Numbered from the stretch's first letter, positions 34,350-54,996 are shown. The stretch is 64,000 nucleotides of DNA from Gammaproteobacteria bacterium (GCA_021773175.1 JAJFKO010000059.1:845-64844); one strand, 5' to 3'. Numbers and translations: made by a program. Notes: generated by a model from the letters alone, not told the origin.

Positions 34350-34513
34350 AAAAAATAACGGAATGACGGGATATCTGCTAAATTTTTTCGCATTATACCG
34401 ATTTTTAGTGATATTTCCATTAATATTGTATTCATTTGATCTAGCTTTTATTTCTATGGAAGGCTATCCAGCTCTTGCAAAAAATTATCAAATCGGATAC
34501 CTAAGATAAAAAT

Positions 34514-37500
34514 TTAGAGCTTATTGATTATATCTGTAATTTCTTTTAATGCTTGGCCATGAAGGATAGTGTCATGTGTTGCGGATATTGTTTTTATTTC
34601 TAAGTGGTCAATCAATGATTTCCATCCATAATCATCATCAACTTTAAGTCTTTTAATAGGTTTTATGCTTGCTTCTTGTTTTGTTTCCTTCGAGGCTTTA
34701 ATTAATATTGTATCTCCATTATATTTTTCAGGCTTATAGTTCTGCAATAGATCTTTTGCTAATTTCCAATTATTCTTTATATGCTCTTTATATGTCTTAG
34801 GTAATAAATGCCATAGTGTGTTTATCTGTTGGATATGCTTTTCACTATATTGGTATATATCTAAACTATAATCTGTTGTTAAACAACTATCGACTAAAAG
34901 CAACTTCTTAACTGGTTGGTTTTCTTTTCGTAATTGTTGTGCCATTTCAAAAGCAATGACGCCTCCAAATCCCCAGCCTCCTAAACAATAGCTCTCAACA
35001 TGATTTGTATTTCTAATACAGCTTAAATAACGATTTGCAAGAGCTTTAATAGTTTTAATACATTGTGACGATTGAAATACAAAATCAGAATCAATGCCAT
35101 AAAAAGGAATATCTTCATTTATCGTCTTTGCTAGCTCAGCATAGACCTCTGCTCCAGAAGATATGGGGTGCACAAAATATATAGGAATTTTGCCACCAAA
35201 ATCATTATATTTTATTATAGGTTGGAACTTTGTGTTAATCTCGGCAGCACTAAATGCATGTATTTGAGAATTAATCGTAGCATGCTCAAATAACCATGCT
35301 AAATCATACTCTCTATTAAACATTTTGTTGATACACTCTAAGATTCGTATCGATAGTATTCTATTGGCACCCACCATATAGAAAGGATCTTTTGTACTAA
35401 AGTTTGAGTGGCCAAGGATTTCATACCATATCTTCGACAACTTATATTTTAAAGCAAACTCTTTATCCTTTGTTGCTGACAATGCCACTTTACTCGAAAA
35501 AGATAATTGTTGTTTTGCGGAAGAAGAAAGCAATATTTTTTGTTTATTTTGAAAGTGTTTTTTCAACTGAGAAAAGAGCGGCATTTCTATAATAGGTTTG
35601 TCTGAATAGCCGGCAAACAAACTAGACATTAAATCTTTAAGCGCCTTAAACACTGTTTTTATAGTGCCATCATTATATAAGCTATTATTATAAACCAACT
35701 GCATCGACAAACCTTCTCGATGCTCTACAAATCTAAAAACCAATTCTAGTTTAGTGATTAAATGATCGTCTTTAATTGGAGATAAAACAAAACCAGGCAT
35801 ATCGATTTCCGACTCAGTTGCAGCAAGAGTATAGTCGATAGCAACTTTATACAAAGGCAACGCACTCACACCACTGGACATTTTCAATCTCTCAAGCAAA
35901 ACTTCAAAAGGCACATCTTGATTGGCATAAGCTTCTAAACAAGTTTCTTTTACTTGACTCAATAAGTCAGAGAAAAGTAAATCTTTATTAAATTGAGCCC
36001 TAAAAGGTAAGCTATTTGCAAAAAAACCTACAATATTTCCTGTGTCAGGATAATGCCTATTTGCAACATTAGAGCCAACAACAACATCATCACTACCACT
36101 ACAAGCATATAATAATGACATTACACAGGAGAGAAAAAACATAAACGGTGTCACATTATGATTACTAACTATCTCATGTATTTTATTTTTTTCTTTGTTA
36201 TTTAACATAATTGAAAATTGACTTGCCAGAAAATTATCTTGCTTAACCTCTTTATGGTCACAAGGCACCGTAACTATATTGAAATTTTTTAATTTTTTCT
36301 GCCAATAATCAATTTGTGAATTAAAAACATTCTCAGATAGAAGTCTACGTTGCCAAAAGACAAAATCTTTATAGTGGTATTTTTGAGGGCTAAGTTCAGG
36401 CTCTTGGTTTATTATATATGCTGAATAGATCGCCTTTAATTCATTTAATATAATCTTAACAGACCAACCATCTGTGATCAGGTGATGTTGAGATATTACT
36501 AAAACATGTTTTTTGGCACTGAGGTTATAGAGTTTTAATCTAATTAATGGGCCATTTATCAAATCAAAAGGCGCATAAAAATCTTTTTTCAAGTGTTCCG
36601 GCAACTGTGCTTTTTTAACTGCAATCACATCTAATTTGAAACATTGATTTGTTACGACTTTCTGTCGAACTTGACCACCCCTTTCTATAAATACGGTATT
36701 AAAAGACTCATGCCTTGATAATATTTTGTCTAATGATTTTTCTAGTACAGCAATATTTACCTCACCATCTAGATTATAGGCATGAGGCATGTTGTAAGCT
36801 GAAAAATTCTTACCATAATACTGACTTAAAAACCAGATGCGTTCCTGAGATGTTGATAAAGAATATTCATTTTTTCTATCCTTGATAACACACATCTTAA
36901 ACTTATAACCACTTACATCAAAGAGATTGTTTCTAATATAACTTGCCATTTCATCAACTGAAGAATACTTAAAAACCAAGTTCACGGGAAAACGAATGCT
37001 AAAATGTTCTTGTATTAAAGAACATAATGTCATGGCCAATAATGAATTTCCGCCAATACAAAAAAATCCAACGCCTTTAGCTACTTTATTAATATCCAGT
37101 ACTTTACACCAAATTGTTAATACAATTTCTTCTATTTCATCATATTGGCTCGTTTCTCCGGTACCTATTTCATCCGCATTTATTTCAATAGCACTTAGAG
37201 CTTGTCTATTAATTTTTCCATTCGCTGTTAATGGAAATTGTTCTAATATCGCAACTTTAGATGGCACCATATATTCAGGTAATCTATCATGTAAGTATCG
37301 TCGTAATTCTTTACTGGTAACAGGTTGTTGCGTATTAGCTAAGACGATATACGCAATGAGTTGATTTTGGTTTTTATTCGAGGTAAGCACTTCGGCATTC
37401 TTAACTGCATCATGTTGACTAAGAGTAACTTTAATTTCATTTAGTTCAATACGGTAACCACGAACTTTCACTTGAAAGTCCACGCGTCCGATATATATAA

Positions 37501-40500
37501 CATCACCTGCATCAGACCATTTACATAAATCACCAGTCTTATATAAACGAACAGCTTGAGTGTTTGTACTAAAGGGATTAGGTATAAAAGACTGCTCGGT
37601 TAAGCTTTTATTATTTAAATATCCACGAGCGACACCCGCGCCACCAATATATAACTCCCCAATCACTCCCTCAGGTACAGGTTGTTGCATTTTATCTAAA
37701 ATATAGAGAGAAACATTCGCTAGCCCTTTACCAAGAGGTAAAGAATATTTTTGGTTATCGTCCCGCTTTAATTCATGTGTTATCGCCCCGATAGTGGCTT
37801 CTGTTGGTCCATAGTGATTGATGATGCGTAACTGAGGACTTAATGCTTGAATCTTTTTTAGTAAACATGGGCTGCTGCTTTCTCCTCCGAGTATTAATAC
37901 TTTCTTAGGCAATAAAGTAGGACCGTCATCAATACTGAGTAATCCTTCTAAATGTGACGGTGTTATTTTAAGACAATCTATATTATGAGTTCGCATATAA
38001 GTTGAGAAAGCTTGTCCATCAAGGCTATATTCATCCGTTAAAAAGTGTAAGGTTCCTGCTGACATTAGAGACATAAATAGAGTGGTATAACCTAAATCTG
38101 CCGCAAGTGTCGAGATATGAACAAAGCTTGTTTCAGAAGAGAATTCTAACCGTCGCTGTAATGCATGAGCATAATTGGTAACATTTTTATGTTCAATCAT
38201 AACTCCTTTTGGCTTACCCGTGGAGCCTGAGGTATAAACAATATAAGCAAGTTTATCTGATTGCACAGATGGTAAGGTCAGTTCTTTATATGAGCTATCT
38301 TGATGCTTGGCAATCTCAAGAATACTTATATATTCTACTTTCGTATGCTCACAAATTTCAGGTAAAGACGCAGGTTCTGCTATTAAAAATTGTGCATGAG
38401 CACTATTTAAAATATTTATCACTCGTTGTGCTGGAAATTTCAGATCAAATGGAATATAGGCAGCACCCGATTTCCAAACAGCAAGCATTGCAACAAGAAA
38501 TGCAACGGAACGTTCTAAAAGGATACCCACAAAAACTTCAGAGTCCTTATCGATGCCCAGAGCACGATGCCTGCTCATTAAATATTTAGCAAGAAGGTCA
38601 GAGCGTTTATCAAGCTCTGCATATGTGAGCTGCGACACAGCATCTACTACAGCTACCGCATCAGGGCAGGTCTGAGTATGGCTTTTCAACGATGCTAAAA
38701 GTGATACGTCCTTTATAGGTTGAGAATCGACTAGACTCCAATCATTTAAAATTAAATCATATTCTCCAGGACTTAATATCTTGTGACAAAGAATAGGTTG
38801 CTTTGGACTAGCTAGTGCTTCTTGTAGCAGCATAGCAAAATGGCCAGCCATATTAGCAATGGTTGACTCACAAAATAACGCTTTATCATAATTTATACTG
38901 CATGCTAATTTATCTTCTTTATCTATAATATCTAATGTTAAGTCAAACTTAGAAACCTTTAAACGTTGAGGATACTCTTCGACTTCGATGTCTGGTAATA
39001 ATAATTCCAATTGTTCGTCTTGTTGTTGCAAAACAAATCTCACTTGAAATAATGGCGTGCGTCGAGTATCACGAACGACCTCAAGTTCATCAACTAAATG
39101 TTCGAACGCAACATCTTGATGGCTATATGCTGCTAGACATGTTGACTTAACACGTTTTACCAACTCAATAAAATTAATATCACCAGACAAATCGCTTCGA
39201 ATCGCCAATGAGTTAATAAAGAAGCCCAGCATTGAAGCAACACTTTCTTGCTTACGGCTCGTGATCGGAGTACCAACAATAATGTCACTTTGACCACTAT
39301 ATCGTTGTAAAAGCATATTAAATGCAGCTAACATTACCATGAACAAGGTACTATCTGTCTCAGAACACAGTAATTTTACTGCCTCAACAATATTTTCATC
39401 CAATTCAAAATTATAGCTCTCACCCTCCGTTTTCTTTATTGCCGGACGAGGATAATCTGTAGGCAAATTCAATATAGGCATATTTGCTAACTGAGTTCGC
39501 CAATAATCAACTTGCTTTAATCTCTGTTCACTCGCTAAGCTTGACTGCTCCCATACCGCATAGTCAGTATATTGATATTGCAGTTCTGGGAGAGTTGGAC
39601 TCTGGTTCTTTATATACGACTGATAGGTTTCACCTAGCTCTTGAAGTAAAATTTGTAATGACCATCCATCCGTAGCAATATGATGATGATTAATTAATAA
39701 AACATAGTTTTTATCTGATAGCAGATAAAGATAAACTTTAATTATTGGCCCTGAACTGAGGTCAAAAGATTGATGAATATCTTTATGCAAAATAGCGTCG
39801 AGCGAGTTATTTTTAACATCCTTTTCAACAAACTCTATATCTACTTTTGCTTTAACAAATTGACGAGGAACACTCTTTTCCATGCCATAATGCGTTCGCA
39901 AAATATCATGCCGAGCTAATAGATAATCAAAACTTTTTTTCAACACAGCGGCATCTAACTCACCAAGCAAACGTATGACATAAGGGACATTATATGTTGA
40001 GCTAGATGAGGACTCATACGCATCTAAAAACCATAATCGCTGTTGCGCAGAAGAGAGCGGGTATGATGACGCCTTCTTTGCTTTTGTTAAAGTTGTTGTT
40101 TCATGTTGTTCTTGTGACACACTCTGATGGTCTTGAATATAACCTGATAATTCTGCGATAGTTTTATGACTAAACAGAATCGCAACGGGACAATCAATAT
40201 TAAAGTTTTTCTGTATTTTTAATGATAATTGTATTGCTAAAAGAGAATGTCCACCTAGTCTAAAAAAGTCATCATAAACACCAATTTTTTCAACAGTTAA
40301 AATATTTTGCCATAACTCTGTTAAGGTCTGCTCGGTTTTATTACGAGGTGCGGTATATTTTGCTTTAGATAATTTCCCCTTGTTTATTTCAGGTAGCGCT
40401 TTGTGATCTACCTTGCCATTAGCTGTAAGTGGTAAACTCTGCATTTTTATAATGACAGTAGGAATCATATGCTCAGGTAATCGCTCAGCTAACCATACTA

Positions 40501-43500
40501 ATAATTCATCAGTATCTAACATCTCAACTTCATTGTTATATACAACATAGGCAACAAGATGTGATGCATCACCAACTTTTGATAATAGTACTACAGCTTG
40601 ACTTACACTATCATGAGACTGTAACTCAGCCTCAATTTCACCTAATTCAACACGAAATCCGCGAATTTTTATTTGAAAATCCGAACGTCCAATATAATCA
40701 ATATTACCATCAGCTAAGCGACGGACAAGATCACCTGTTCTATAAAGTCGTAGATTACGTCCATCCTCAAGTTCCTCAGCTGTTAGAAAAGGATTATTAA
40801 TGAAACGTTCTTGTGTAAGCTCCTCACGATTCAAGTATCCTCGTGCAACACCAATACCACCAAGATATAGCTCACCCGTTATCCCAATAGGAACAGGACT
40901 TTTATCTCTATCTAGTATATAGGCGGTCGTATTTGAAGATGGTTTGCCTATGGGATAATGAGAAAGGCCTTCATGTTTGTCTCTAGAAATATTAAAGCCC
41001 GTTGATAAAGTTGTATTCTCAGAAGGTCCATATAAATTCAGCACTTGTACTTTGTTATTTTCTGGTATCTGTAACAGTTTATCAACAATTGCAGTATTTA
41101 CTGCCTCACCACCAAACATAATATATTTTAAACTAGAGAAAATTGTACTATCAAACAATACATATTCATGAAATAAAGCTGTAGTCATCACGATATGAGT
41201 CATATTATGTTGCGTTATAATATTTTTAAACCGTTCCGGATGTAATAAATCTTGTTTATCTATACAAACCATTGTGGCGCCATTCAGAAACCCAATCCAT
41301 AATTCAAAAGCTGCGACATCTGAGGAAATATTAGCAGCAAAAGCATAAACGTCCCCTTCTTGCATATCTATAAGGTGTTCTTCTTTTGCTAATGCAATGA
41401 CACTCTCATGTTCAATCATCACGCCCTTAGGAAGACCTGTTGAACCAGATGTATAAGAAATATAAGCAAGAGAAGAAGGTTTAGCAATATTAGGAGGTGC
41501 AGATTCAGGGCAGGCAAGAATGTCTGGCATTACTTGTTCAATAATAATAATTTCATTTTTAAGCTCATGTAGGAGCGCTAAAACATTAAATGTTTTTTCA
41601 TTTGTTATTAATAACTCTGCTTTTGTATCGTTTAACATATGTGCTAAACGTGCTTCAGGATAATTGAGGTCAAGAGGAACATATGCTGCTCCTACCTTTA
41701 ATATAGCTAATATAGAAATAATAAGGTCAATACTTCTTTCCATACAAAGAGCAATAAATGTATCAGGTTGAATGGCGACTTTCACTCTATCTTGATAACT
41801 TGTCCGTAAATAATTTGCCATTTGGTTAGCTTGCTTATCTAGCTCTGCATAGGTTAGAGATTTATTCTGATAAACAACTGCGATATTATTTGGATTGCGT
41901 TTCACTTGTTCTGCGAATAGTTCTGTAATATTTTTGGACTTTGGATAATCACTATTTGTCTGATTCCAACCATACAAAAGTTGCTCGCGCTCAATTGATG
42001 TTAACATTGTCAAACTAGCAATATTATCGGTCTTTCTCGTTACGACGTCTTGTAATAGTGAGGTGAAATGCCCTGACATTTGTGAAATCGTCACATTAGA
42101 AAACAGAGCTTTATCATAATTAAACCTACAACCAATTCGATTATTTTTCTCTGTAACACTTAATGTTAAGTCAAATTTTGCAACTTCAAGGCCTTGAGAA
42201 TAATCTTGTACCTCTACCCCAGGTAAGACTAATGTTGATAACTCATCAGCTTGTTCTAAAACAAACATAACTTGAAATAAAGGTGTACGACTTGTATCAC
42301 GCTCAATATTTAGAGTATCAACCAAGTGCTCAAACGCAATATCTTGATGACCATATGCTGATAAGCATGTTGCTTTTATTGTTTTAATATAGTCAATTGT
42401 ACTAATGTTTTCTGTGATATTACTACGAATTGCCAAAGTATTAATAAAGAATCCCAGCATCGTTGCGACACCATCTTGATGACGATTTGCAATGGGCGTG
42501 CCAACAACAATATCATCTTGCCCACTGTATTTATGTAGCAAAAGATTAAAGACTGCAAACAACACCATAAATAAAGTACTATCTGCTTCATCACACAATG
42601 ATCGTACGGACTTAACAAGTTCAGAGTCTAATTCAAAAAAACAGTTAGCCCCATCATATTTTTTCACTGCAGGACGAACATAATCTAAAGGTAATGTTAG
42701 GGTTGGCGCATCCAGTAGCTGTTCTTGCCAATAGCTTATCTGTTCAGAAAACCTTTTACTAATAGAGTTAGACTGCTCCCATGTAGCATAGTCAATGTAT
42801 TGATACTTTTGTTCAGGTAATTCAGGCATCCGCTCTTCAAGCAGTGCAGAGTAATACTCACTCAATTCATTTGTGATAATTTGTAAAGACCATCTATCAG
42901 TAATAATATGATGCTGGTTTATAAGTAGAATAAATTCATTATTGGCTAGAAAATATAAATATACCTTGAAGACAGGGCCATTGGCCAAGTCAAAGGGACT
43001 GTGTATAGCGGTGCGAGTTAATGCTATCGCATTCTTCTCATCCGTATGGATTTCCTCAAAAAAAACGTCGCATTTTTCATCTACACATTGATAGGTGGCA
43101 TCATCCTTAAATCCAAAATAGGTTCGTAATATTTGATGACGTTGTAGCAGAAGTACAAAACTTTGCTTAAGAATAGAAACATTTATTTTACCATGCAAGT
43201 GTACAATATAAGGAACATTGTAGGTTGCAGATGAAGAAGACTCATATGCATCCAGAAACCATAATCGCTGTTGTGCAGAAGAAAGAAGATATGAATCCGA
43301 TTTTTCTGCTTTTGTTATATTAATAATATTGTCTTTCACACTATTTTTATTAATACCACTCTTTATATGGGATGATAAATCAGCAACAGTTTTATACTTA
43401 AATAATATAGCAACGGGACAGTCAACATGGAAATATTGCTGTATTTTTAACGATAATTGCATCGCTAAAATAGAATGTCCACCTAGTTTAAAGAAGTCAT

Positions 43501-46500: not shown

Positions 46501-49500
46501 ATAACATCCCTTCCTGTATTGGACTTAAATAAGAAATATTCTCAACCTGATTCTTCTCAAAAATATGGTCTAATGTTTTTTGTGGAAAATCTCGTTTAAG
46601 TAGAAAGTCAGATGGAGTATAATAACGCTGGCTAGTATTGCAACAAGCATTAATAATATTTTCCAAATGAAATTCTAAAAGAGACAATAAATTATTAATT
46701 TCGTCAATTGAATACTGTTTAGTACTTGCATTAATTTGCAAACTAAATTTATCGTCAATAACCCATGATAGAAAATATAAAGAATGGATCGCTCTATTCT
46801 GTGGCGCTACTCTAAAGTTATCTAATGGTGATATCTTTTTATATAATGAGCTTGTTTTGATAACGCTATCAAGTTGTCCAATATAATTAAAGCAAATATT
46901 AAATTCTGGCTCGAAAGAAGCGTTATCATTATTTTGCTGTAAATAACGATACATTCCATAACTAAGTCCATTATCAGGAATATAGTGTAAAATATTTTTT
47001 ATATGCTTAATTAAAGAAAAGTAATCAGTCTCACTCTCAATTAAGCTACAAGGGTTTGTTAGAATAACAGGATACATCGATGTAAACCAACCAACCACAC
47101 TAGATACATCGATATCTTGAATACAATCTTCACGCCCATGACCTTCTAAACATAATCCAATCTTTTCTGTTTTTTGCCATGTACTATACGCAGCCACCAA
47201 GGCTGATAACAAAATATCATTAATATTTGTATTTATAAGCTTGTTGGCATCTTTTAATAACATTGTTGACAGTTTTTTACTTAATGTAAAAGTATAGGTA
47301 CCTGTATCTTCATTATTACTAGCATTATTTTTCTGAGCATGCTCTTGTGGAAAATCTTTCTCTACTGCTTGCCAGTAGTTAATCTCGTTCTCTTGCAGTT
47401 TGCTTGAACAGAACTTTAATAGAGCATCCTGCCAATCAAGAAAAGATTGAGTTTTGGCCGGAAAAGACAACGCTTTATTATCACACTGTAACTCATATAA
47501 AAAAGCAAAATCAGCAAATAAAACATGCCAAGAAATAATATCAACATATAAATGATGGATGGTTATATAAAGAAAATATTCCTTTTTAATATCATCATGT
47601 AATAAGCCTACTTGCAGAATGTCTCCATTCGAAATGTCTAACTGCTTATTCAGCTGACATACTATCTTATCAGTTTTCTGTTTTCTCAACTCTTCATTTT
47701 CTGCAGCAATTAAATGTTCATGTACCGACACATTGAAAATGTTGGTATTATTTTGGTAAGTTTGCAATATGTTACCGTCATCAAATCGAAAGCGTATTCT
47801 AAAAGTGGAGTGCTGCTCTATTAAAGCACAAATGATTTTTTCAACCTCAGGCTTCTTTAATTTAACTTTAGTTTCTAATAAGAAAGCCTGGTTATAATGG
47901 TTTTGGTTTAAAAGTTTTAATGAAAAGAAATGTTGTTGTATCGGTGATAAAGGGATATCACCTTCTTCGCATGAATTATGTATAACTAAATTTTTATTTG
48001 CATTTGTCGACTCTATAAATTTTGCTAGTTTAAAAACAGATGGATTGTCAAACACAAACTGTATTTGCAGACTATATCCTAATCGTCCAGCTCGAGAGAT
48101 AATTTGAATAGCAGAAATAGAATCACCACCCAATTCGAAAAAGTCATCATTTACAGAGATATTATCCAGCCCTAAGACCTCTTTGTAAATTTTTAGTATT
48201 TGTATTTCAATATCCGTCTCTGTATGTCCCTGTACTTCAGCTTTGTGCGTTTTGAATTTTTCTAACAGTTTTTTTCGATCTAGTTTGCCGTTGTTATTTA
48301 AAGGCAACTTTTCTAAAAAGATAATGCTCCCAGGAATCATATATTGAGGCAATATATCTTTTAAGTACTCTTTTATTTGTTGGAGGTCTAGCAGTGTTTT
48401 TTTATTAGTCAAAATAACATATGCGACTAAAACTGTTTTATCATTACGTTTAGCGCCGAGTACAACAGCATTTTTTATATCAGGATGAAGATTAAGAGCA
48501 TGTTCTATCTCTGTCAGCTCAACACGATAGCCTCGAACTTTAAGCTGGTAATCTTGACGCCCAATATACTCCACATTATTATCGGATAATACTCTAACAA
48601 GATCTCCAGTTTTATAAGCTCGCGTGGAGCCTTTCAAAAAGACACTATCTATAAAGGACTTTTTAGTTTCTTCTGGATTCTTCAAATAACCTCTCGCGAC
48701 ACCGTCTCCGGAGAGATATAACTCGCCAATCTCTCCTGATTTAACGGGTTTACGCTCTTCATCAAGCACATAAGCCTGCATACCATTTAAAACTTTACCA
48801 ATAGGAAGTGACTCTAAATATTTATTACCCTTTGTAAATGTAAAAGCCCCAATCGTTGTTTCCGTGGGGCCATAATGATTAATGATTTTTAATTTTGGCG
48901 ACAAATTGTGTAGCTTCATCAAAAGCTGTGGAGATGCGACCTCACCACCTAAAATTAATTGCTTATTAGGTAAAATTGCTTGTGGATTTTCACAATCCAA
49001 TAATACATTTAGATGAGAGGGGACTATTTTTACAACATCAATAGAGTGAGCATCCATTGTTTGTGCAAAAAGCATGGGATTATATGTTTGCTCTTCTGTT
49101 ATTAAAACTAATGTGTTAGCAGAACAAAGTGCCAGAAAAATATTGGTATAGCCTAAATCAGCATAAACTGGAGATAGATTTGCAAATTTCCCGCCTGGTT
49201 TTAATTTTAAAATGTCAGAAATAGCATTAATGTAATGGTTCAAATTTTGATGTTCAATCATCACGCCCTTAGGTTCACCCGTTGAACCAGAGGTATAAAT
49301 CACATAAGCCAAACTATCTATCGGTATGGTTATGTCCGGTGAGACATTTAAATTTGATTGTTCTCCATCATTTTTTTGAAGGTTCTCTATATACTCTACT
49401 TGACAATCTGCTAGAAAAGCTGAATTTTCATATTGATTACTTGTTAGCGCCAGCTTACATTCTGCTTGTTGTATTATAAAATCTAATCTTTGCTTTGGAG

Positions 49501-49810
49501 CATTGAGAGCAACAGGTAAAAATGCGGCTCCCGTTTTTAATACGCCAAGTAGAGCAATAATAAAATCAATATCTCTTTCAAAAACTAACAAAATAATGTC
49601 GTTGGCTTGTAAAGGATGCTTTACTATCGACTTGTATTGTTTGATAAGATTATACGCAACTTGATTAGCCGCAGAATTCAATTCATTGAACGTTAGCTGT
49701 CTATGGTTACAAATAACAGCAATTTTATCTGGGTAAATCGACGCTATTTTTTCAAATAGCCGGGAAAAACCTATATTACTGGTTGTTTTACCTCGATTGC
49801 CATCCTGCAT
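34514..49810 (-). CDS. non-ribosomal peptide synthetase, 5098 aa. Domains A1-T1-E | C2(DCL)-A2-T2 | C3(LCL)-A3-T3 | C4(LCL)-A4-T4 | C5-T*-TE*, with the terminal T and TE degenerate
   Basis: By motif. A cores: YTSGSTGxPKG at aa 172, 1703, 2785, 3859; A10 NGK/NDK. T serines: GGDS 561-564, GGHS 2110-2113, GGHS 3186-3189, GGNS 4253-4256. E motifs: PLSPIQQHFF 620, HHLYVDIISW 752, EGHGRE 889, VGWFTSMYPV 906. C motifs: HHHITMDGWS 1225, HHIITDRWS 2300, HHHIATDGWS 3375, HHLITDGWS 4442. Approx nt (±60): A1 48266-49753; T1 47996-48208; E 46631-47968; C2 45266-46543; A2 43625-45178; T2 43361-43573; C3 42011-43303; A3 40391-41938; T3 40136-40348; C4 38771-40078; A4 37196-38713; T4 36926-37138; C5 35576-36883. 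Confidence 0.95.
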   Translation of the reverse strand: MQDGNRGKTTSNIGFSRLFEKIASIYPDKIAVICNHRQLTFNELNSAANQVAYNLIKQYKSIVKHPLQANDIILLVFERDIDFIIALLGVLKTGAAFLPVALNAPKQRLDFIIQQAECKLALTSNQYENSAFLADCQVEYIENLQKNDGEQSNLNVSPDITIPIDSLAYVIYTSGSTGEPKGVMIEHQNLNHYINAISDILKLKPGGKFANLSPVYADLGYTNIFLALCSANTLVLITEEQTYNPMLFAQTMDAHSIDVVKIVPSHLNVLLDCENPQAILPNKQLILGGEVASPQLLMKLHNLSPKLKIINHYGPTETTIGAFTFTKGNKYLESLPIGKVLNGMQAYVLDEERKPVKSGEIGELYLSGDGVARGYLKNPEETKKSFIDSVFLKGSTRAYKTGDLVRVLSDNNVEYIGRQDYQLKVRGYRVELTEIEHALNLHPDIKNAVVLGAKRNDKTVLVAYVILTNKKTLLDLQQIKEYLKDILPQYMIPGSIIFLEKLPLNNNGKLDRKKLLEKFKTHKAEVQGHTETDIEIQILKIYKEVLGLDNISVNDDFFELGGDSISAIQIISRAGRLGYSLQIQFVFDNPSVFKLAKFIESTNANKNLVIHNSCEEGDIPLSPIQQHFFSLKLLNQNHYNQAFLLETKVKLKKPEVEKIICALIEQHSTFRIRFRFDDGNILQTYQNNTNIFNVSVHEHLIAAENEELRKQKTDKIVCQLNKQLDISNGDILQVGLLHDDIKKEYFLYITIHHLYVDIISWHVLFADFAFLYELQCDNKALSFPAKTQSFLDWQDALLKFCSSKLQENEINYWQAVEKDFPQEHAQKNNASNNEDTGTYTFTLSKKLSTMLLKDANKLINTNINDILLSALVAAYSTWQKTEKIGLCLEGHGREDCIQDIDVSSVVGWFTSMYPVILTNPCSLIESETDYFSLIKHIKNILHYIPDNGLSYGMYRYLQQNNDNASFEPEFNICFNYIGQLDSVIKTSSLYKKISPLDNFRVAPQNRAIHSLYFLSWVIDDKFSLQINASTKQYSIDEINNLLSLLEFHLENIINACCNTSQRYYTPSDFLLKRDFPQKTLDHIFEKNQVENISYLSPIQEGMLFHYLYGPISDEYCVQISWELEASCKPHLFKQAWQEIIQRYPVFRLSFLWENLPEPIQIVHKNTTIPWVVLDWRQRAKKNLNRALSKLCKNDREKGFMLSEPCIMRFFLVRLEDEKYVFIWNHHHITMDGWSVSIIKKEVMSAYHAYCNNEKYTNLKLTSYDNYLRWLHTSNMDRVMAFWKSEVEGLNSPMQLPFISYKEGISHSQRVKVIKDKSMKLSVNVLQKAVKFKADYKITLNTLLQMTLMTLFSRYTNTDDIIFGMVCSGRPPEVLESDKIVGLLVNTLPLRMTLDNDKNIIDLLSALQQKIHSVNSNAAIGITDIKKLSNISDERLLFDCFSNYEHYPDYIQSTDFANYKINEKNSFTLGFNFTKNNGIFVQIQYDANRIKSEAIGILLKQFKRTFTNLLANPQVPLANLDILTAKERRQILTEWNDTSVSYPRDKTIVELFTEQVAQTPQNIAVSYRDEMLTYAELQQQVMLKANALHYTYHKHYKEGISKDSIIGVCMERNLDLVVTLLSIMQVNAAYMPIDPDFPISRIAYMLKDSQPVLILCQEKFASQLFSIDELPCPVLISEKLSEVAAEPIDNLDPFSAEQLAYVIYTSGSTGNPKGVMLQHRGIVNELLWMQRAYNFTSDDRVLQTTVFSFDISVWELFLPLVTGAELVIAEPKGHKDPHYLMELINRKRITTLQFVPTMLDAFVKNFLRDNASMKLTSLSRVFVIGEALSSELAMLFTQCFDAALYNFYGPTEASIGVSIYNCRQERSDELPIVPIGRPIFNTQLYVLDKNLNLLPVAMVGELYIGGEGLARGYLNRAKLTSERFIANPFVSTEDKLAGRNLLLYKTGDLCRWLPDGNIEYVGRMDFQVKVRGYRIELGEIEAKLQQHEDVSQAVVILSENNQVACLVAYVVLNKKSINKEMAISMKLQTWLSKCLPEYMVPSVIIRLDSLPLTSNDKLDRKALPAPEWDTFRARSIYTAPRDEMEVNLINLWQEVLNVKQVGIHDDFFKLGGHSILAMQLSLKIQQYFHVDCPVAILFKYKTVADLSSHIKSGINKNSVKDNIINITKAEKSDSYLLSSAQQRLWFLDAYESSSSATYNVPYIVHLHGKINVSILKQSFVLLLQRHQILRTYFGFKDDATYQCVDEKCDVFFEEIHTDEKNAIALTRTAIHSPFDLANGPVFKVYLYFLANNEFILLINQHHIITDRWSLQIITNELSEYYSALLEERMPELPEQKYQYIDYATWEQSNSISKRFSEQISYWQEQLLDAPTLTLPLDYVRPAVKKYDGANCFFELDSELVKSVRSLCDEADSTLFMVLFAVFNLLLHKYSGQDDIVVGTPIANRHQDGVATMLGFFINTLAIRSNITENISTIDYIKTIKATCLSAYGHQDIAFEHLVDTLNIERDTSRTPLFQVMFVLEQADELSTLVLPGVEVQDYSQGLEVAKFDLTLSVTEKNNRIGCRFNYDKALFSNVTISQMSGHFTSLLQDVVTRKTDNIASLTMLTSIEREQLLYGWNQTNSDYPKSKNITELFAEQVKRNPNNIAVVYQNKSLTYAELDKQANQMANYLRTSYQDRVKVAIQPDTFIALCMERSIDLIISILAILKVGAAYVPLDLNYPEARLAHMLNDTKAELLITNEKTFNVLALLHELKNEIIIIEQVMPDILACPESAPPNIAKPSSLAYISYTSGSTGLPKGVMIEHESVIALAKEEHLIDMQEGDVYAFAANISSDVAAFELWIGFLNGATMVCIDKQDLLHPERFKNIITQHNMTHIVMTTALFHEYVLFDSTIFSSLKYIMFGGEAVNTAIVDKLLQIPENNKVQVLNLYGPSENTTLSTGFNISRDKHEGLSHYPIGKPSSNTTAYILDRDKSPVPIGITGELYLGGIGVARGYLNREELTQERFINNPFLTAEELEDGRNLRLYRTGDLVRRLADGNIDYIGRSDFQIKIRGFRVELGEIEAELQSHDSVSQAVVLLSKVGDASHLVAYVVYNNEVEMLDTDELLVWLAERLPEHMIPTVIIKMQSLPLTANGKVDHKALPEINKGKLSKAKYTAPRNKTEQTLTELWQNILTVEKIGVYDDFFRLGGHSLLAIQLSLKIQKNFNIDCPVAILFSHKTIAELSGYIQDHQSVSQEQHETTTLTKAKKASSYPLSSAQQRLWFLDAYESSSSSTYNVPYVIRLLGELDAAVLKKSFDYLLARHDILRTHYGMEKSVPRQFVKAKVDIEFVEKDVKNNSLDAILHKDIHQSFDLSSGPIIKVYLYLLSDKNYVLLINHHHIATDGWSLQILLQELGETYQSYIKNQSPTLPELQYQYTDYAVWEQSSLASEQRLKQVDYWRTQLANMPILNLPTDYPRPAIKKTEGESYNFELDENIVEAVKLLCSETDSTLFMVMLAAFNMLLQRYSGQSDIIVGTPITSRKQESVASMLGFFINSLAIRSDLSGDINFIELVKRVKSTCLAAYSHQDVAFEHLVDELEVVRDTRRTPLFQVRFVLQQQDEQLELLLPDIEVEEYPQRLKVSKFDLTLDIIDKEDKLACSINYDKALFCESTIANMAGHFAMLLQEALASPKQPILCHKILSPGEYDLILNDWSLVDSQPIKDVSLLASLKSHTQTCPDAVAVVDAVSQLTYAELDKRSDLLAKYLMSRHRALGIDKDSEVFVGILLERSVAFLVAMLAVWKSGAAYIPFDLKFPAQRVINILNSAHAQFLIAEPASLPEICEHTKVEYISILEIAKHQDSSYKELTLPSVQSDKLAYIVYTSGSTGKPKGVMIEHKNVTNYAHALQRRLEFSSETSFVHISTLAADLGYTTLFMSLMSAGTLHFLTDEYSLDGQAFSTYMRTHNIDCLKITPSHLEGLLSIDDGPTLLPKKVLILGGESSSPCLLKKIQALSPQLRIINHYGPTEATIGAITHELKRDDNQKYSLPLGKGLANVSLYILDKMQQPVPEGVIGELYIGGAGVARGYLNNKSLTEQSFIPNPFSTNTQAVRLYKTGDLCKWSDAGDVIYIGRVDFQVKVRGYRIELNEIKVTLSQHDAVKNAEVLTSNKNQNQLIAYIVLANTQQPVTSKELRRYLHDRLPEYMVPSKVAILEQFPLTANGKINRQALSAIEINADEIGTGETSQYDEIEEIVLTIWCKVLDINKVAKGVGFFCIGGNSLLAMTLCSLIQEHFSIRFPVNLVFKYSSVDEMASYIRNNLFDVSGYKFKMCVIKDRKNEYSLSTSQERIWFLSQYYGKNFSAYNMPHAYNLDGEVNIAVLEKSLDKILSRHESFNTVFIERGGQVRQKVVTNQCFKLDVIAVKKAQLPEHLKKDFYAPFDLINGPLIRLKLYNLSAKKHVLVISQHHLITDGWSVKIILNELKAIYSAYIINQEPELSPQKYHYKDFVFWQRRLLSENVFNSQIDYWQKKLKNFNIVTVPCDHKEVKQDNFLASQFSIMLNNKEKNKIHEIVSNHNVTPFMFFLSCVMSLLYACSGSDDVVVGSNVANRHYPDTGNIVGFFANSLPFRAQFNKDLLFSDLLSQVKETCLEAYANQDVPFEVLLERLKMSSGVSALPLYKVAIDYTLAATESEIDMPGFVLSPIKDDHLITKLELVFRFVEHREGLSMQLVYNNSLYNDGTIKTVFKALKDLMSSLFAGYSDKPIIEMPLFSQLKKHFQNKQKILLSSSAKQQLSFSSKVALSATKDKEFALKYKLSKIWYEILGHSNFSTKDPFYMVGANRILSIRILECINKMFNREYDLAWLFEHATINSQIHAFSAAEINTKFQPIIKYNDFGGKIPIYFVHPISSGAEVYAELAKTINEDIPFYGIDSDFVFQSSQCIKTIKALANRYLSCIRNTNHVESYCLGGWGFGGVIAFEMAQQLRKENQPVKKLLLVDSCLTTDYSLDIYQYSEKHIQQINTLWHLLPKTYKEHIKNNWKLAKDLLQNYKPEKYNGDTILIKASKETKQEASIKPIKRLKVDDDYGWKSLIDHLEIKTISATHDTILHGQALKEITDIINKL
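34517..35224 (-). other. degenerate thioesterase (TE*) domain of the NRPS: nucleophile position is Gly (GWGFG instead of GWSxG)
   Basis: aa 4863-5098. Codon GGA at 34970-34972, checked on DNA (…TTA GGA GGC TGG GGA TTT GGA GGC…). The second NRPS TE has GWSLGG at the homologous position. Confidence 0.7.
35261..35473 (-). other. degenerate carrier (T*) domain of the NRPS: Ser of the GGxS motif replaced by Arg (GANR)
   Basis: aa about 4780-4850: KYKLSKIWYEILGHSNFSTKDPFYMVGANRILSI. Checked on DNA (GGT GCC AAT AGA). Homologous to the T domain of the second NRPS (EYKLYRIWCHLLDQEKINFDEEFFACGGNSLLVI). Confidence 0.7.
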
Positions 49811-50071
49811 TCTCTACTTTCCCACAAGTCCATTTAACATAATATATTATAGTTATAATTCTTATTATCTATTTGGTATTTATAGCAAAAAATAAAATAA
49901 TGTCAAGCTGTAAAGTTAACGAGATTATTATAATTTCCCAGAAATTCTACTTTTAGTCAGAGATAGTCTAAGGGAGGATGATCCTCCTGCTTGACGTTTT
50001 TTTTGTGAGCCTATAAATTATAAAAGCATTTTCCATTTTTTTTAAATTTTTTCATCCATGCTAGAGATCTA

Positions 50072-50106
50072 CCCATTGGAATTCGAAATGCGAGAATTCC
50101 AATGGG
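50072..50106. promoter_or_regulatory. perfect 13-bp inverted repeat CCCATTGGAATTC-N9-GAATTCCAATGGG in the divergent NRPS / transporter intergenic region
   Basis: Seen directly. Sits mid-way in the about 650-bp AT-rich region between the NRPS start (49810, minus) and the first MOP transporter (50464, plus). Candidate operator for a dimeric regulator, or an intergenic hairpin. Confidence 0.4.
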
Positions 50107-50463
50107 TATATACATCATCTTATATGAAGATGCGAGAGTGACTAAAATGAGATACTTTATGAGCTGGCCGCTTTTAGTGGCGAATAGCCATTCTATGTAA
50201 CAATTTTTTCCATATGATTTATTGTCAATAATGATGTGCGAATGGCGTATTAAAAGTCGCATATTCATTTAAAGAAGATGTTACTAATATGATCGAATAT
50301 TAACACTTTAATTTTATACTAGAATTTAACTGTAAAATTTATGATAATCTCTTAAGAATGTTTATAACATCATCAGAGATAATGAAAATACTAACGCTGT
50401 ACCTAACAACTAAAAACATAAGACAAACTGATACTAGTTTGCACACTAAGCAACTAAAAAAAA

Positions 50464-51795
50464 ATGAAAGATAAGTACGTTAATACACACTTCCCACCTT
50501 TTAAGGTTCTCTTGAAAAATTCGATCGCAAGTATATTTCTAATGTTAGCTGCATTTATTATCAACTATTCATTCAACCTCTTGTTAGCCCGCTTACTAAC
50601 TGCAAAAGAGTATGGTGATGTCAATATTACAATTGCAGTTATTATGATATGTACACCATTTTTAATTGTTGGGGCAAATTATGCTGCAATGGTTTTTTTA
50701 AGTGGCTACTTTATTAACAAAGATTATTCACATGCTAAAGGCTTTCTCCTCTGGATAAAAAAACGATTCTTTCTAGGCTCGTTAATAACCATTTTTATTG
50801 GCAGTTTTGGAATCAGCCTAGAAATTGTGTTAATTAAATATAATATTGTTAACGCCCCTTTTATACATCCAGCTATTTTTTCTTTTTGGATAATTCCATT
50901 TTCTGCGGCAATGCTTATTCTGACCGCAATTACAGCAGCGTTTCAAGAGTATATTTTCTCTTCATTTAGTAACAAGGTTTTAATTTATTTATTCTCAATG
51001 ATACTTATCTATGTATGGTCAACATCAATAGGGATTCTAAATACTTATGTTGCAATTTTATGTATTGGTATAGCTTATATTATAACGGTTATCCTACAAT
51101 TAATTTATTTGTTTTTTAAAATCCCTGAAAGCTATTATAAAGCAAAATTTTTACGTGAAGACAAGTCATGGAAATCAGTATCATTACAATTATTTTATAC
51201 AAGACTCGGCTATCTTATTTCTTCAACAATTAATCTGATTATGTTAGAAGTTTTAGGTACTCACAAAGCGGATGTTGGTAACTTTGCGGCAATACTAACA
51301 ATTCTAAGTGTCATGCAGCTTACAAGTATAGCTTTTAGTTTCGTTCTAGAACCAATGATAAAACCATGCTTCACATATAATCGTCTTAAATTCCTGCAAT
51401 ATTTTCTAAATATTGTCAATGCAGTTAACGTATCCGCTCTTATTCTGTTCTCTCTCATTATTGCAATCTTTGGCAAAGAATTACTTGCCCACTTTAACCC
51501 TATCTTTGCTAACGCCTATGACTCATTAATCTTATCACTAATAGGAATAACTATTTATTTTCTATTACCTACATCACGGGCGGTACTGAACTTTGCTGGA
51601 TATACTCCAAAAATGACAAAAATCCTGTCTTATCAAGTTGCCATTTTCCTTGTTTTAGATTGTATATTGATTCCAAGATATAATTTATTTGGTGTCGCAA
51701 TTGCTATGACATCAGGTTACATTTTCACGAGTCTAATGGGGCTATTTTATTGTAAAAAATATATAAAGCAATTAAAGACATTCTTTATAATATAA
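50464..51795 (+). CDS. MOP-superfamily transporter, Wzx/PST-like, paralog A
   Basis: 443 aa, about 12 TM. N-terminal PST-like pattern …LKNSIASIFLMLAAFIINYSFNLLLARLLTAKEYGDVNITIAVI… About 35-40% identical to paralogs B and C. Confidence 0.55.
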   Translation: MKDKYVNTHFPPFKVLLKNSIASIFLMLAAFIINYSFNLLLARLLTAKEYGDVNITIAVIMICTPFLIVGANYAAMVFLSGYFINKDYSHAKGFLLWIKKRFFLGSLITIFIGSFGISLEIVLIKYNIVNAPFIHPAIFSFWIIPFSAAMLILTAITAAFQEYIFSSFSNKVLIYLFSMILIYVWSTSIGILNTYVAILCIGIAYIITVILQLIYLFFKIPESYYKAKFLREDKSWKSVSLQLFYTRLGYLISSTINLIMLEVLGTHKADVGNFAAILTILSVMQLTSIAFSFVLEPMIKPCFTYNRLKFLQYFLNIVNAVNVSALILFSLIIAIFGKELLAHFNPIFANAYDSLILSLIGITIYFLLPTSRAVLNFAGYTPKMTKILSYQVAIFLVLDCILIPRYNLFGVAIAMTSGYIFTSLMGLFYCKKYIKQLKTFFII

Positions 51796-52069
51796 CGAAT
51801 ATACAGCTGTTACTTGTTTAAAATAATCACTATAACAACAAAAATGTTTGGTATGATTTTCGCATTTTGAGATTTCTGAATAACGATAACCGTCATCATA
51901 AGCTAATACTGCTTTTATGCGGTCATGGATCGCTCGCATCTTCATTGGTGAGAGCTATATATCCCAAGACATTTGAATAATGCATAAAAATGGGCTCAGG
52001 AAGTGGACAAGCTTCAATTTTTAGTCTAGATATTGATAATGATAGTTAAATAAATCAGAATAAATCAAT

Positions 52070-53443
52070 ATGTCTCAAGAATATAGACGTCACACCAGTA
52101 ACAAACTAGATGAGGCTCCGCATAAAAAGGAAAACCTTTTTCCATCAGGGAAAGTACTCTTTAAAAACTCTTTATTCAGTATCTTCATGCTTCTACTATC
52201 TTACATTGTTATTTATTTTTACAATATTATTCTCGCACGATTATTAACACCTGCACAATACGGAGATATAGGCGTAACAATTGCCATTATTACAATTTGT
52301 ATCCCTCTTCTGCTTATAGGTGGAAACCTCGCCTCCAAATTGTATCTTGGCTCTTACTTTATGAGTCAAGATTATTCGCATGCGCGCGGATTTCTTGTTT
52401 GGCTACGTCGACGTTTTCTAATTGGAACACTTGTCATTAGTATTATTGGCACACTATTAATTACCGCGGATACGACTCTTCTAAATCTCGGCATAATCAA
52501 ACAACACTTTTTTCATCCTGCTATCTACGCTTTCTGGTTGGTCCCTCTTGCAACTTTTGCAACGTTACAGTCAGCCATTGCCAATGCATTACAGCGTTTT
52601 GTTTTATCTATTTTCCCCATAAAAGTATTACTCTATCTTCTCGCTATGCCTATATTTTATATTTATGCGGTTTGTATCGACAAAATGAACACTTATAGTG
52701 CCATATTTTGTATCGGTATTACTTACGTGATCGTCATTATAGTCCAGACTACATTTCTTTATATAAACTTTCCGAGCAAATATTTTAATATAAAAGTTAA
52801 AATGAAACATATTGAGTGGCATAAAACCTCCCTACAACTTTTTATTTCCACGCTTGCGTTCTTGAGTGTCGCAACAATAAGTTTAGTTATGGTTGAAGTA
52901 TTAGCCACACAAGAAGGTGACGTTGGAATCTTTACTGCAATATTAGCTATTACGGGCTCTTTACCACTGCCAAGTCTCGCCTTTAACTATATTATCTCTC
53001 CTATTATAGCCCCTGCATTTACACAAAATCAGATACCTTATTTACAAAAATTATTACATCACTGCAATTTCTTTAATATTATTATTACCTTTACTCTCTT
53101 AGTTATTATTATCTTTTTTGGGAAAACTCTATTAGCACACTTTAACCCAACATTTTCTCTCGCATACTCAACACTATTAATCTGTGCTATTAGTTTTGCA
53201 ATATATTACCTTGCCTTTTCTGCCATTATGCTATTAATGTATCATGGTCAAACAAAATTGCTTAGTAAAATTCTTATAGCTCAGTTGTTAATTATTATAG
53301 TTTTAGATCTGATTCTTATTCCAGAATATCAAATGTTGGGTGCTGCAATCAGCTTAGCTTGTGGATATATAACTGCGGGATTAGCCTTTATCTTCTTTGC
53401 CAGAAGACACATAAAAGATCTAAAAACATTCTTTATTCTTTAA
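52070..53443 (+). CDS. MOP-superfamily transporter, Wzx/PST-like, paralog B
   Basis: 457 aa. About 70% identical to paralog C over full length (FPSGKVLFKNSLFSIF…LARLLTPAQYGDIGVTIAII…). Confidence 0.55.
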   Translation: MSQEYRRHTSNKLDEAPHKKENLFPSGKVLFKNSLFSIFMLLLSYIVIYFYNIILARLLTPAQYGDIGVTIAIITICIPLLLIGGNLASKLYLGSYFMSQDYSHARGFLVWLRRRFLIGTLVISIIGTLLITADTTLLNLGIIKQHFFHPAIYAFWLVPLATFATLQSAIANALQRFVLSIFPIKVLLYLLAMPIFYIYAVCIDKMNTYSAIFCIGITYVIVIIVQTTFLYINFPSKYFNIKVKMKHIEWHKTSLQLFISTLAFLSVATISLVMVEVLATQEGDVGIFTAILAITGSLPLPSLAFNYIISPIIAPAFTQNQIPYLQKLLHHCNFFNIIITFTLLVIIIFFGKTLLAHFNPTFSLAYSTLLICAISFAIYYLAFSAIMLLMYHGQTKLLSKILIAQLLIIIVLDLILIPEYQMLGAAISLACGYITAGLAFIFFARRHIKDLKTFFIL

Positions 53444-53448
53444 CTGTG

Positions 53449-53525
53449 TAGGACTTACGATAAATGATAACATCAGCTTGAGCCCTCTGGGTATAATAAA
53501 GAAATCGGTGTTTAGCATAAGTCCT
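53449..53525. repeat. 77-bp MITE-like copy between transporter paralogs B and C
   Basis: AGGACTTACGATAAA … TTTAGCATAAGTCCT terminal inverted repeats. Begins 6 nt after the paralog B stop. Confidence 0.5.
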
Positions 53526-53622
53526 AATTATATTATTGACAGGACTACTGCATTTAAAAAAGTAGACTAAATGCCATTCCTAATCTAAACTTTTACAATC
53601 ATAGTTTAATAATTAAATAAAT

Positions 53623-54996
53623 ATGCCAATAAAAATAAATAATCCCCTACATAATCAACCGATTAGCGAACAGAAAAAAAACGAAACTCTTTTTCCTTCA
53701 GGGAAAAAACTCGCCCAAAACTCTGTACTCAGTATTTTTATCATGATCCTAAGTTATATCGCTATTTATTTCTACAATATCGTTCTAGCAAAATTACTTC
53801 CTCCTGGGCAATTTGGTGATATAGGCGTTACTATGGCTATTATTGCAATTTGTATTCCAATACTTGTTCTGGGTGGATCTCTTGCATCCAAACTATATCT
53901 TGGCAATTATTTTGTTTCTCAAGATTATCCTCATGCTCGCGGTTTTCTTGTTTGGTTACGTCGACGTTTCTTTTTTGGAACCCTTCTTATTAGTATAATC
54001 GGTACTCTTTTAATTACGACCGACCTTACTTTACTTAGACTGGGTATTATAAAAGAACATTTTTTTCATGTTGCGATCTATGCATTTTGGCTTGTGCCAC
54101 TTGCAACCTATGCAATGCTACAAGCAGCGATAGCCAATGCATTACAACGCTATGTTTTGTCAATCTTTCCAACCGGCGTCTTACGTTATTTTCTAGCTAT
54201 CCCAATACTTTATCTATTTGCGGTTTATGTTGATAAAATGAATGCTTTTCATGCTATTTTTTGTATTGGCATAACATATGTAATTCTTATTTGTATTCAA
54301 GCAGTATTCTTATATATCAACCTTCCTAATAAATATTTTAATACCAAAGTTAAAATAGAACATATAGAATGGAAAAAAACATCATTACAGCTCTTTATTA
54401 CTACTATTATTTATCTTTGTGTATCATCCGCCAGTTTAATGTTATTGGAAGCAATCGGAAATACGGAGTCTGAAGTTGGAACAATGACAGCGATGCTAGT
54501 CATTCTTGGCATAATGCCATTATCCAGCGTCGCATTTGGTTACATTGTTAATCCTATTGTGAAACCAGCACTTGAGCTCAATCAAATAGATTACTTACAA
54601 AAACTTTTAAATAGATGCAATTTTTTTAATATAATAACTCTTGCCATTGTACTATGTATTATTATATTTTTTGGAAGTGATTTATTATCACATTTCAATC
54701 CTGACTTTAAGCAGGCATATATACCCTTATTAATCTGTGCATTTGCATTTGCAATAAATTCCTGCCTTTACTTTACTAGAATGGTGTTGATGTTTGGTGG
54801 CGAACAAAAACTTTTTAATAAAATAGTCATCGCCCAGTTAATCATTATTGTTGTTTTAGATTTAATACTTATCCCCATCTATCAACTCCTTGGGGCTGCA
54901 ATTGGTTTAGCAACAGGGTATATAGCTATTGCCTTTATTGCTCTCTTCTTTGTAAGACGGCGCTTTAAAAATATCAAAACATTTTTTATTATTTAG
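53623..54996 (+). CDS. MOP-superfamily transporter, Wzx/PST-like, paralog C
   Basis: 457 aa. Near-duplicate of B. Convergent with hisS (11-nt gap). Confidence 0.55.
   Translation: MPIKINNPLHNQPISEQKKNETLFPSGKKLAQNSVLSIFIMILSYIAIYFYNIVLAKLLPPGQFGDIGVTMAIIAICIPILVLGGSLASKLYLGNYFVSQDYPHARGFLVWLRRRFFFGTLLISIIGTLLITTDLTLLRLGIIKEHFFHVAIYAFWLVPLATYAMLQAAIANALQRYVLSIFPTGVLRYFLAIPILYLFAVYVDKMNAFHAIFCIGITYVILICIQAVFLYINLPNKYFNTKVKIEHIEWKKTSLQLFITTIIYLCVSSASLMLLEAIGNTESEVGTMTAMLVILGIMPLSSVAFGYIVNPIVKPALELNQIDYLQKLLNRCNFFNIITLAIVLCIIIFFGSDLLSHFNPDFKQAYIPLLICAFAFAINSCLYFTRMVLMFGGEQKLFNKIVIAQLIIIVVLDLILIPIYQLLGAAIGLATGYIAIAFIALFFVRRRFKNIKTFFII

Follow-up and report, generated by a model that had tools for sequence, protein, structure and literature searches.

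Linear non-ribosomal peptide synthetases (NRPSs) of the tyrocidine, gramicidin S and bacitracin type are built from adenylation (A), carrier (T) and condensation (C) domains, begin with an A-T-epimerase (A-T-E) module and use C domains suited to a D-configured donor. Here we describe an enzyme with the same domain families and the same logic, NRPS1, which is encoded beside three tandem membrane-protein paralogs in a 64,000-nt stretch of DNA from a Gammaproteobacteria bacterium (GCA_021773175.1, JAJFKO010000059.1:845-64844; the whole stretch is called the window below), where both lie between the otherwise near-universal neighbours hisS and yfgM. In contrast to the tyrocidine, gramicidin S and bacitracin systems, NRPS1 is one protein, is only 33-40% identical to any searched homologue, and ends in a module that has no A domain and in which the carrier (T5) and the thioesterase (TE) are catalytically dead. 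The same terminal layout, an A-less C-T-TE unit loaded in trans, is presumably that of module 9 of the syringomycin synthetase SyrE; there, however, we take the carrier and thioesterase serines to be functional and the residue to be supplied by a separate A-T protein, whereas NRPS1 has other residues in place of both, and the window encodes no stand-alone A-T protein. Bacterial precedents exist for a terminal C domain that releases the chain (crocacin, FK520 and C-1027), and such release has been reported for 9 of 33 Legionella clusters (PMC5640695). NRPS1 would likewise end catalysis at a competent C domain, C5, although this domain precedes a degenerate carrier and thioesterase instead of ending the protein.

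The three membrane proteins, transporters T1 to T3, share with WzxE and other PST flippases a 12-helix MOP fold and nearest relatives that carry the Pfam family PF01943, but they fall below the Pfam gathering score, lie in no glycan locus and stand as three tandem copies beside an NRPS. A precedent for a MOP transporter that serves an assembly line is presumably ClbM, the MATE transporter of the colibactin NRPS-polyketide synthase (PKS) island, which we take to export precolibactin. ClbM (PDB 4z3p) is among the structural matches of the T proteins, although T1 to T3 give no MatE match. Like T1 to T3, ImcL from the imacidin system (bioRxiv 10.1101/2025.10.02.680127) is a MOP flippase paralog within an NRPS cluster; ImcL, however, is plainly a MurJ homologue, with 14 helices, and its role in resistance is proven, whereas T1 to T3 are not MurJ-like.

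A first reading, made by a model from the sequence alone (the sequence-only reading), had described hisS and yfgM as split by a 15.3-kb NRPS ORF and three paralogs on the opposite strand. Our map of open reading frames (ORFs) agrees exactly with the coordinates given there for the insert and its flanks, and Pfam confirmed the flanking genes. The two genes are 20,658 nt apart, and the insert of about 20.7 kb holds one NRPS of 5098 residues on the minus strand and the three membrane-protein paralogs, in tandem, on the plus strand:

31091-32500, minus strand: der (Pfam, two GTPase domains and a KH-like domain)
32500-33657, minus strand: bamB (Pfam PQQ_2, 1e-55)
33654-34349, minus strand: yfgM, left flank of the insert (Pfam TPR_21, 6e-54)
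34350-34513, minus strand: left junction, 164 nt from the NRPS1 stop to yfgM
34514-49810, minus strand: NRPS1, a single ORF of 5098 residues, 15.3 kb (Pfam Condensation, AMP-binding, PP-binding and Thioesterase)
49811-50463: divergent intergenic region between NRPS1 and transporter T1, 653 nt
50464-51795, plus strand: transporter T1, 443 residues (MOP superfamily; Pfam PF01943 below cut-off)
52070-53443, plus strand: transporter T2, 457 residues, paralog
53623-54996, plus strand: transporter T3, 457 residues, paralog, ending 11 nt from the convergent hisS stop codon
55008-56285, minus strand: hisS, right flank of the insert (Pfam tRNA-synt_His, 7e-47)

The C-terminus of hisS is intact, with homologues spanning residues 1-423 of 425, and beyond it the minus strand continues with rodZ (HTH_25), a TPR gene at the pilW position, rlmN and ndk, all confirmed by Pfam. 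For comparison we used 80 gammaproteobacterial hisS loci from a scan of one genome per species, all of them from other orders and with a HisS at most 62% identical to that of the window. That hisS-yfgM-bamB-der is normally contiguous, as had been stated, was borne out: yfgM follows hisS at 4-517 nt (median 48) in 77 loci, of the three exceptions, two show bamB at the distance that would be expected, and one is cut off by the end of its contig. Escherichia coli K-12, checked directly, has the order ndk-rlmN-rodZ-ispG-hisS-yfgM-bamB-der with a hisS-yfgM gap of 17 nt. Set against these distances, the 20,658 nt seen here show that the interruption is real and, in all likelihood, derived. The insert was present in none of the 80 loci, and neither was a homologue of NRPS1 or of transporters T1 to T3; it is a lineage-specific break in an otherwise near-universal hisS-yfgM adjacency. 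One of the most conserved gammaproteobacterial adjacencies is thereby broken, which puts a gene of 15 kb upstream of yfgM-bamB-der. The sequence-only reading had also pointed to a missing ispG. The gene is indeed found nowhere in the 64-kb window, but this is unremarkable: ispG stands beside hisS in only 34 of the 80 loci, and Methylococcales-type loci run from pilW straight to hisS, so there is no link between the insert and the lack of ispG.

The host is an isolated, deep-branching gammaproteobacterial lineage of about 38% G+C without a sequenced close relative. Its HisS has a closest match of 64% identity among 5.8 billion proteins, and yfgM, der, rlmN, transporters T1 and T3 and the NRPS are each singletons at 90% identity in the protein collection. 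The insert had been described as having the same composition as its surroundings, which holds for one measure and fails for another. Total G+C is 0.340 in the insert versus 0.384 in the rest of the window, with the difference at codon positions 1 and 2, whereas G+C at third codon positions (GC3) is 0.25-0.29 in the insert genes and within the 0.25-0.37 of the host genes. The accompanying claim, that the insert is no recent high-GC import, is supported, as these GC3 values speak against a recent arrival from a compositionally different donor. Transporters T2 and T3 have diverged by 0.27 at non-synonymous sites (dN) and 1.6 at synonymous sites (dS), with a dN/dS of about 0.17, which indicates an old duplication in which both copies have been kept under purifying selection. 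Host-like GC3 and saturated paralog divergence together argue for an old acquisition, or for a donor of similar composition. The junctions, as first reported, show no integrase or tRNA: no integrase or transposase domain adjoins the insert (Pfam, ORFs of at least 100-110 residues), the only tRNA in the window (27425-27501) is 7 kb from the left junction, and no junction-spanning (att-like) repeats were found. The locus thus displays neither an integrase, nor a tRNA target, nor flanking direct repeats of the kind that mark site-specific integration.

Self-seeded phmmer searches resolved NRPS1 into the order A1-T1-E / C2-A2-T2 / C3-A3-T3 / C4-A4-T4 / C5-T5-TE, with four A, six C-like and five T domains and one TE:

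46571-49735, minus strand: initiation module A1-T1-E (A1, residues 26-509; T1, residues 539-600; E, residues 637-1080)
43364-46462, minus strand: module 2, C2-A2-T2 (C2 motifs LSPIQEGMLFH and HHHITMDGWS; A2 code DIWQFIFIGK)
40136-43300, minus strand: module 3, C3-A3-T3 (C3 motifs LSSAQQRLWFL and HHIITDRWS; A3 code DVFVMGLTLK)
36935-40069, minus strand: module 4, C4-A4-T4 (A4 code DLTKIGHIGK, identical to that of A1; T4 motif GGNS)
35624-36868, minus strand: C5, terminal condensation domain (HHLITDGWS intact; no A domain after it)
35273-35434, minus strand: T5, carrier-like (VGANRIL replaces GGHSL)
34520-35185, minus strand: TE, thioesterase fold (Pfam Thioesterase, 7.7e-17)

With its recurring A, T and C domains, whose core motifs are intact, NRPS1 is a modular type I NRPS. 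Core motifs A3, A5, A7, A8 and A10 are intact in all four A domains, HHxxxD is present in all C domains, and carriers T1 to T4 have GGxS with serine codons TCT or TCA; NCBIfam returned generic NRPS models only, none at cut-off as an equivalog. In the initiation module, carrier T1 reads GGDS and the first C-like domain is an epimerase, with the motifs HHLYVDIIS and NDILLSAL and with top PDB matches to residues 621-1100 that are all E domains (BacC, GrsA, TycA, TycB and PvdL). The top PDB matches of C2 are C domains that follow an E domain (McyB, the second C of BacC, SrfA-C, TycB1 and PvdL), and these matches and its LSPIQEGMLFH motif fit a D-configured donor. C3, C4 and C5 combine an N-terminus of the SxAQxRLWFL type with HHxxxD, and in DNA the T-C stretches at modules 2/3 and 3/4 share 70-76% identity (repeat families D2 and D3).

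Stachelhaus codes were extracted against GrsA, and the GrsA query itself gave DAWTIAAICK at the canonical positions, which validates the extraction. The code shared by A1 and A4 differs by a single conservative substitution from DLTKVGHI, which specifies Asp in SrfAB-M2, and also by one change from DLTKIGHV, a published Asp-type prediction for pyoverdine synthetase modules of Pseudomonas syringae; it is an Asp-type specificity code. A literature search gave no code that matches those of A2 and A3, the only resemblances being loose ones, to hydrophobic codes and, for DIWQF, to a domain judged Gln-like. On the strength of the A1 and A4 codes, the predicted product on carrier T4 is probably a D-Asp-X-X-Asp tetrapeptide, and since NRPS1 has no starter C domain or acyl ligase, no lipid tail is expected. 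Homology searches were made with the terminal C5-T5-TE segment against the protein database and with module 1 against plasmid records, and the other proteins found were only 24-35% identical. The searched parts match no known cluster, which supports the view that the locus is uncharacterised, and its product, from a lineage without a sequenced close relative, is probably chemically novel.

The picture of NRPS1 as a complete canonical assembly line does not hold at the release end. C5 has the TycC C domain as its top PDB match (2.6e-58), and only about 64 residues separate it from T5, which leaves module 5 without an A domain. In T5 the serine that would carry phosphopantetheine is an arginine (codon AGA, 35360-35362), and HMMER places GANR opposite the GGHS of the TycC peptidyl carrier protein. 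Every other module has an A domain and a carrier serine that can be phosphopantetheinylated; module 5 has neither. In the TE the nucleophilic serine is a glycine (codon GGA, 34970-34972), GGWGFGG standing opposite GGWSFGG of the NocB TE. GxSxG therefore reads GWGFG and the Ser-Asp-His triad is broken, with the Asp (LLLVDS) and His (SATHD) retained. GGA is two changes from any serine codon, which makes a single sequencing error unlikely at this position. Together the Ser-to-Arg and Ser-to-Gly substitutions exclude canonical thioesterase release, and three options remain, namely the intact C5, a partner encoded elsewhere that acts in trans, or an enzyme that is a recent relic. As module 5 lacks an A domain, a carrier serine and a TE nucleophile, the intact C5 is the likeliest release catalyst, and a dead T5-TE behind an intact C5 offers a natural test case for C-domain release.

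The best database matches to the C5-T5-TE segment were A-less C-C-T-TE proteins of fatty acyl-AMP ligase (FAAL)-PKS clusters, which at 24-30% identity and with a working Ser or Cys were rejected as relatives of the locus. Closest among them are proteins of about 1320 residues (L088 10001-14167 and L089 10001-13945), whose genes directly follow those for an A-T protein and a PKS of about 2680 residues with an aminotransferase domain; some of the C-C-T-TE proteins have a GxCxG thioesterase. Their neighbourhoods look like a conserved, apparently undescribed cluster of lipo-amine type.

Among the membrane proteins, identity is 43% between T1 and T2, 38% between T1 and T3, and 65% between T2 and T3. 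They had been called MOP transporters of the Wzx/PST type, and the first half of that assignment is secure: they have about 12 transmembrane helices in two six-helix lobes, and the T3 fold has its top TM-score (0.71/0.78) to WzxE (PDB 9g9p). MATE and MurJ structures are equally similar, so that the fold gives no choice among Wzx, MATE and MurJ. The second half is a best guess from sequence that stays below the curated threshold, since against a gathering cut-off of 28.2 bits for PF01943 (Polysacc_synt) T1 alone comes near (24.9 bits), T2 scores 11.9 bits and T3 has no match. No NCBIfam model matches T1 to T3, and in Pfam they have no MurJ match and none to MatE (PF01554) up to E = 5. Charged residues conserved in their helices were listed and are not diagnostic. 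When 5.8 billion proteins were searched through a word index with T3, the query itself, T2 and two proteins of 24-25% identity were the only matches. A profile built from five sequences, T1 to T3 plus two matches, reached 42,009 proteins in a full HMM scan; those that score best outside the locus carry PF01943 and show about 26-27% identity. Among about 15 billion proteins, none outside the locus was more than about 27% identical. One distant relative, P0004, lies in a locus with Wzy, glycosyltransferase and sulfotransferase genes, and the others stand alone among unrelated or housekeeping genes. In or beside the insert there is no Wzy, glycosyltransferase or initiating transferase; three GT87 genes lie 45 kb off.

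A search of plasmid records with T1 gave one match, at 25% identity, in Legionella adelaidensis, with no NRPS nearby. It is an unannotated protein of 436 residues (L087 14953-16263; NZ_LR134432.1, 'plasmid 23') that stands alone beside hemE. The gene content of 'plasmid 23', with dnaK, dnaJ, argS, recG and others of this kind, suggests a piece of chromosome.

We suggest, with about an even chance of being right, that this old, lineage-specific insertion of about 20.7 kb between hisS and yfgM encodes an orphan four-module pathway for an acidic D-Asp-X-X-Asp peptide, which C5 would release and the MOP paralogs would move over the inner membrane. A1-T1-E would load Asp and epimerise it, A2 and A3 would add two residues and A4 the second Asp. 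C5 would then act as release catalyst, transferring the chain to a free nucleophile, hydrolysing it or cyclising it, and one or more of the MOP paralogs would take either the product itself or a conjugate made from it across the inner membrane. All parts are of known kinds, and on present evidence none of the features requires a new kind of system; one unusual aspect is that an NRPS is paired with transporters of a type not normally tied to peptides, in three copies that have been maintained for a long time. As the sequence-only reading had reported, the window supplies no phosphopantetheinyl transferase (PPTase), MbtH or type II thioesterase: no PPTase (PF01648) or stand-alone thioesterase was found among window ORFs of at least 100-110 residues, and tblastn with MbtH and Sfp query sequences gave nothing below E = 0.4 in the window. 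It is usual for the PPTase to be encoded at another place in the genome, and a single distant one serves all clusters in Legionella (PMC5126622).

Several points weigh against this proposal. NRPS1 and transporters T1 to T3 are linked by adjacency only, through their shared divergent intergenic region. Of the earlier claim of an uncharacterised locus for peptide synthesis and export, the novelty is supported by the low identities (24-35% for the NRPS, at most about 27% for the transporters), whereas the export half comes only from that adjacency and the common intergenic region. The usual cargo of MOP proteins of the PST type is a lipid-linked glycan and not a free peptide. With the closest HisS so distant, there is no near relative to fix the timing or direction of the event. 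The C5-T5-TE segment also has the lowest G+C in NRPS1 (0.32), and two dead active sites may signal a synthetase that is decaying and not one that has been re-wired.

Decay is the alternative that survives best, although we consider it unlikely. NRPS1 would then be a relic that releases nothing, its fifth module having lost first its A domain and then the carrier and TE serines, and T1 to T3 would be independent of it, for example as surface-glycan flippases. Two independent losses of catalytic residues, an A-less last module and the low G+C of just that segment are what such a history would leave, and the contexts of the distant T-protein relatives, the glycan locus of P0004 and the solitary housekeeping positions of the others, are consistent with transporters that have nothing to do with an NRPS. 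However, an unbroken frame of 5098 codons in DNA of 35% G+C, with the motifs of the A and C domains and of carriers T1 to T4 all kept, argues against long-standing decay and for a gene that is still maintained. The TE, too, retains its Asp and His and its Pfam score, and a glycan flippase would lack the glycosyltransferase, Wzy and initiating transferase that are absent from the insert and its borders.

The insert had been pictured as isolated in a core-genome block, which proved incorrect: a second NRPS, NRPS2, overlooked by the sequence-only reading, lies across the ndk-hisS block from the insert, starting 1 kb past ndk, with a cysZ-like gene between:

59424-60188, plus strand: CysZ/EI24-family membrane protein gene, between ndk and NRPS2
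60296 to the window end (64000), minus strand: NRPS2, visible part C-A-T-TE

NRPS2 has intact GGNS and GWSLG motifs, the A code DAYLLGCTIK and a G+C of 0.358, and is 30-39% identical to the modules of NRPS1; none of the 80 compared loci has a CysZ/EI24-family homologue at that position. With NRPS2 beyond ndk, the 4.3-kb ndk-hisS block has NRPS genes on both sides. The two synthetases might form one pathway, in which C5 condenses in trans with a residue on NRPS2 or on another carrier, T5-TE serves as a docking scaffold only, and the intact TE of NRPS2 releases the product. Such an arrangement would account for a competent terminal C domain before dead domains, and NRPS2, which is about 10.5 kb away on the same strand, has a similarly low G+C and an intact C-A-T-TE end. 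It is nevertheless improbable in our view, as five housekeeping genes, the cysZ-like gene and three transporters stand between two enzymes of such low mutual identity, and the N-terminus of NRPS2 is outside the window.

A further alternative keeps C5 as the catalyst and changes what it makes. C5 could transfer the peptide to a membrane-bound acceptor, and the resulting polyprenyl- or lipid-linked D-Asp tetrapeptide could be flipped to the periplasmic face by T1 to T3 acting as Wzx-like flippases for a lipid-anchored conjugate; if true, this would be an NRPS-to-flippase route of envelope decoration without glycosyltransferases. It draws on the PF01943 family of the nearest sequence relatives, on the top TM-score to WzxE, on a competent terminal C domain that has no acceptor in cis, and on the Wzx-coupled secretion proposed for carenaemin, an NRPS-PKS product (PMC8313283). 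However, the insert encodes no priming transferase, glycosyltransferase or ligase, the T3 fold is equally close to MATE, and the carenaemin route is itself only a proposal. We hold this to be quite improbable, both for the flippase role and for the lipid-linked product.

It is very improbable that T1 to T3 confer self-resistance as drug-insensitive copies of a MOP flippase inhibited by the peptide: an extra MurJ does confer resistance in the imacidin and taeanamide NRPS clusters (bioRxiv 10.1101/2025.10.02.680127), and three copies maintained beside an NRPS could act by dosage or as decoys, but T1 to T3 are not MurJ-like (about 12 helices, 443-457 residues, no MurJ or MatE match in Pfam) and, at no more than about 27% identity to any other protein, are not recent duplicates of a housekeeping flippase. 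We give as little credence to a history with no insertion, in which the ndk-hisS block moved into an existing NRPS region or the arrangement is ancestral to the lineage, since, although NRPS genes on both sides of the block, host-like GC3 and the lack of an integrase, tRNA or flanking repeats would suit it, a single break at hisS-yfgM explains the map, NRPS2 lies outside the ndk-to-der block, and the adjacency is near-universal in other orders. The simplest history is one break inside the conserved block, with NRPS2 outside it.

Both intergenic borders of NRPS1 contain candidate signals. At the left junction, TGGAAA-16-TATAAT (34419-34392) is the best promoter-like match of that region and could keep yfgM-bamB-der expressed; it is a consensus match only, and such sites are no more numerous there than in shuffled sequence. 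The start of yfgM itself is probably the GTG at 34322, in frame and 6 nt past AAGGAG, the ATG at 34349 being without a ribosome-binding site. In the intergenic region between NRPS1 and transporter T1, a near-perfect palindrome (50067-50111; repeat I21) consists of ATCTACCCATTGGAATTC, a 9-nt spacer and GAATTCCAATGGGTATAT, with arms of 18 nt that are 94% complementary. It is a possible operator and lies inside an ORF of 85 codons (50011-50268) that has no Pfam match; an Rfam scan found no riboswitch or other RNA family in this region. On the right, the database version of hisS begins two codons inside the GTG at 56285.

Elsewhere in the window, three paralogous GT87 membrane glycosyltransferase genes on the minus strand (538-1908, 3071-4498 and 4426-5817; G+C 0.34-0.35) lie around yceG/mltG, next to fabF, and are another tandem expansion of membrane-protein genes. 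An ORF at 13055-13897 (minus strand) joins a shikimate-kinase-like domain to a C-terminal LuxR/GerE helix-turn-helix, an unusual fusion. The segment 17010-21158 has a G+C of about 0.35, three ORFs without a Pfam match and intergenic gaps of 756-975 nt, and also encodes a protein of 269 residues with HTH_38/HTH_23 domains as in IS30-type transposases; the segment is possibly a further accessory islet.

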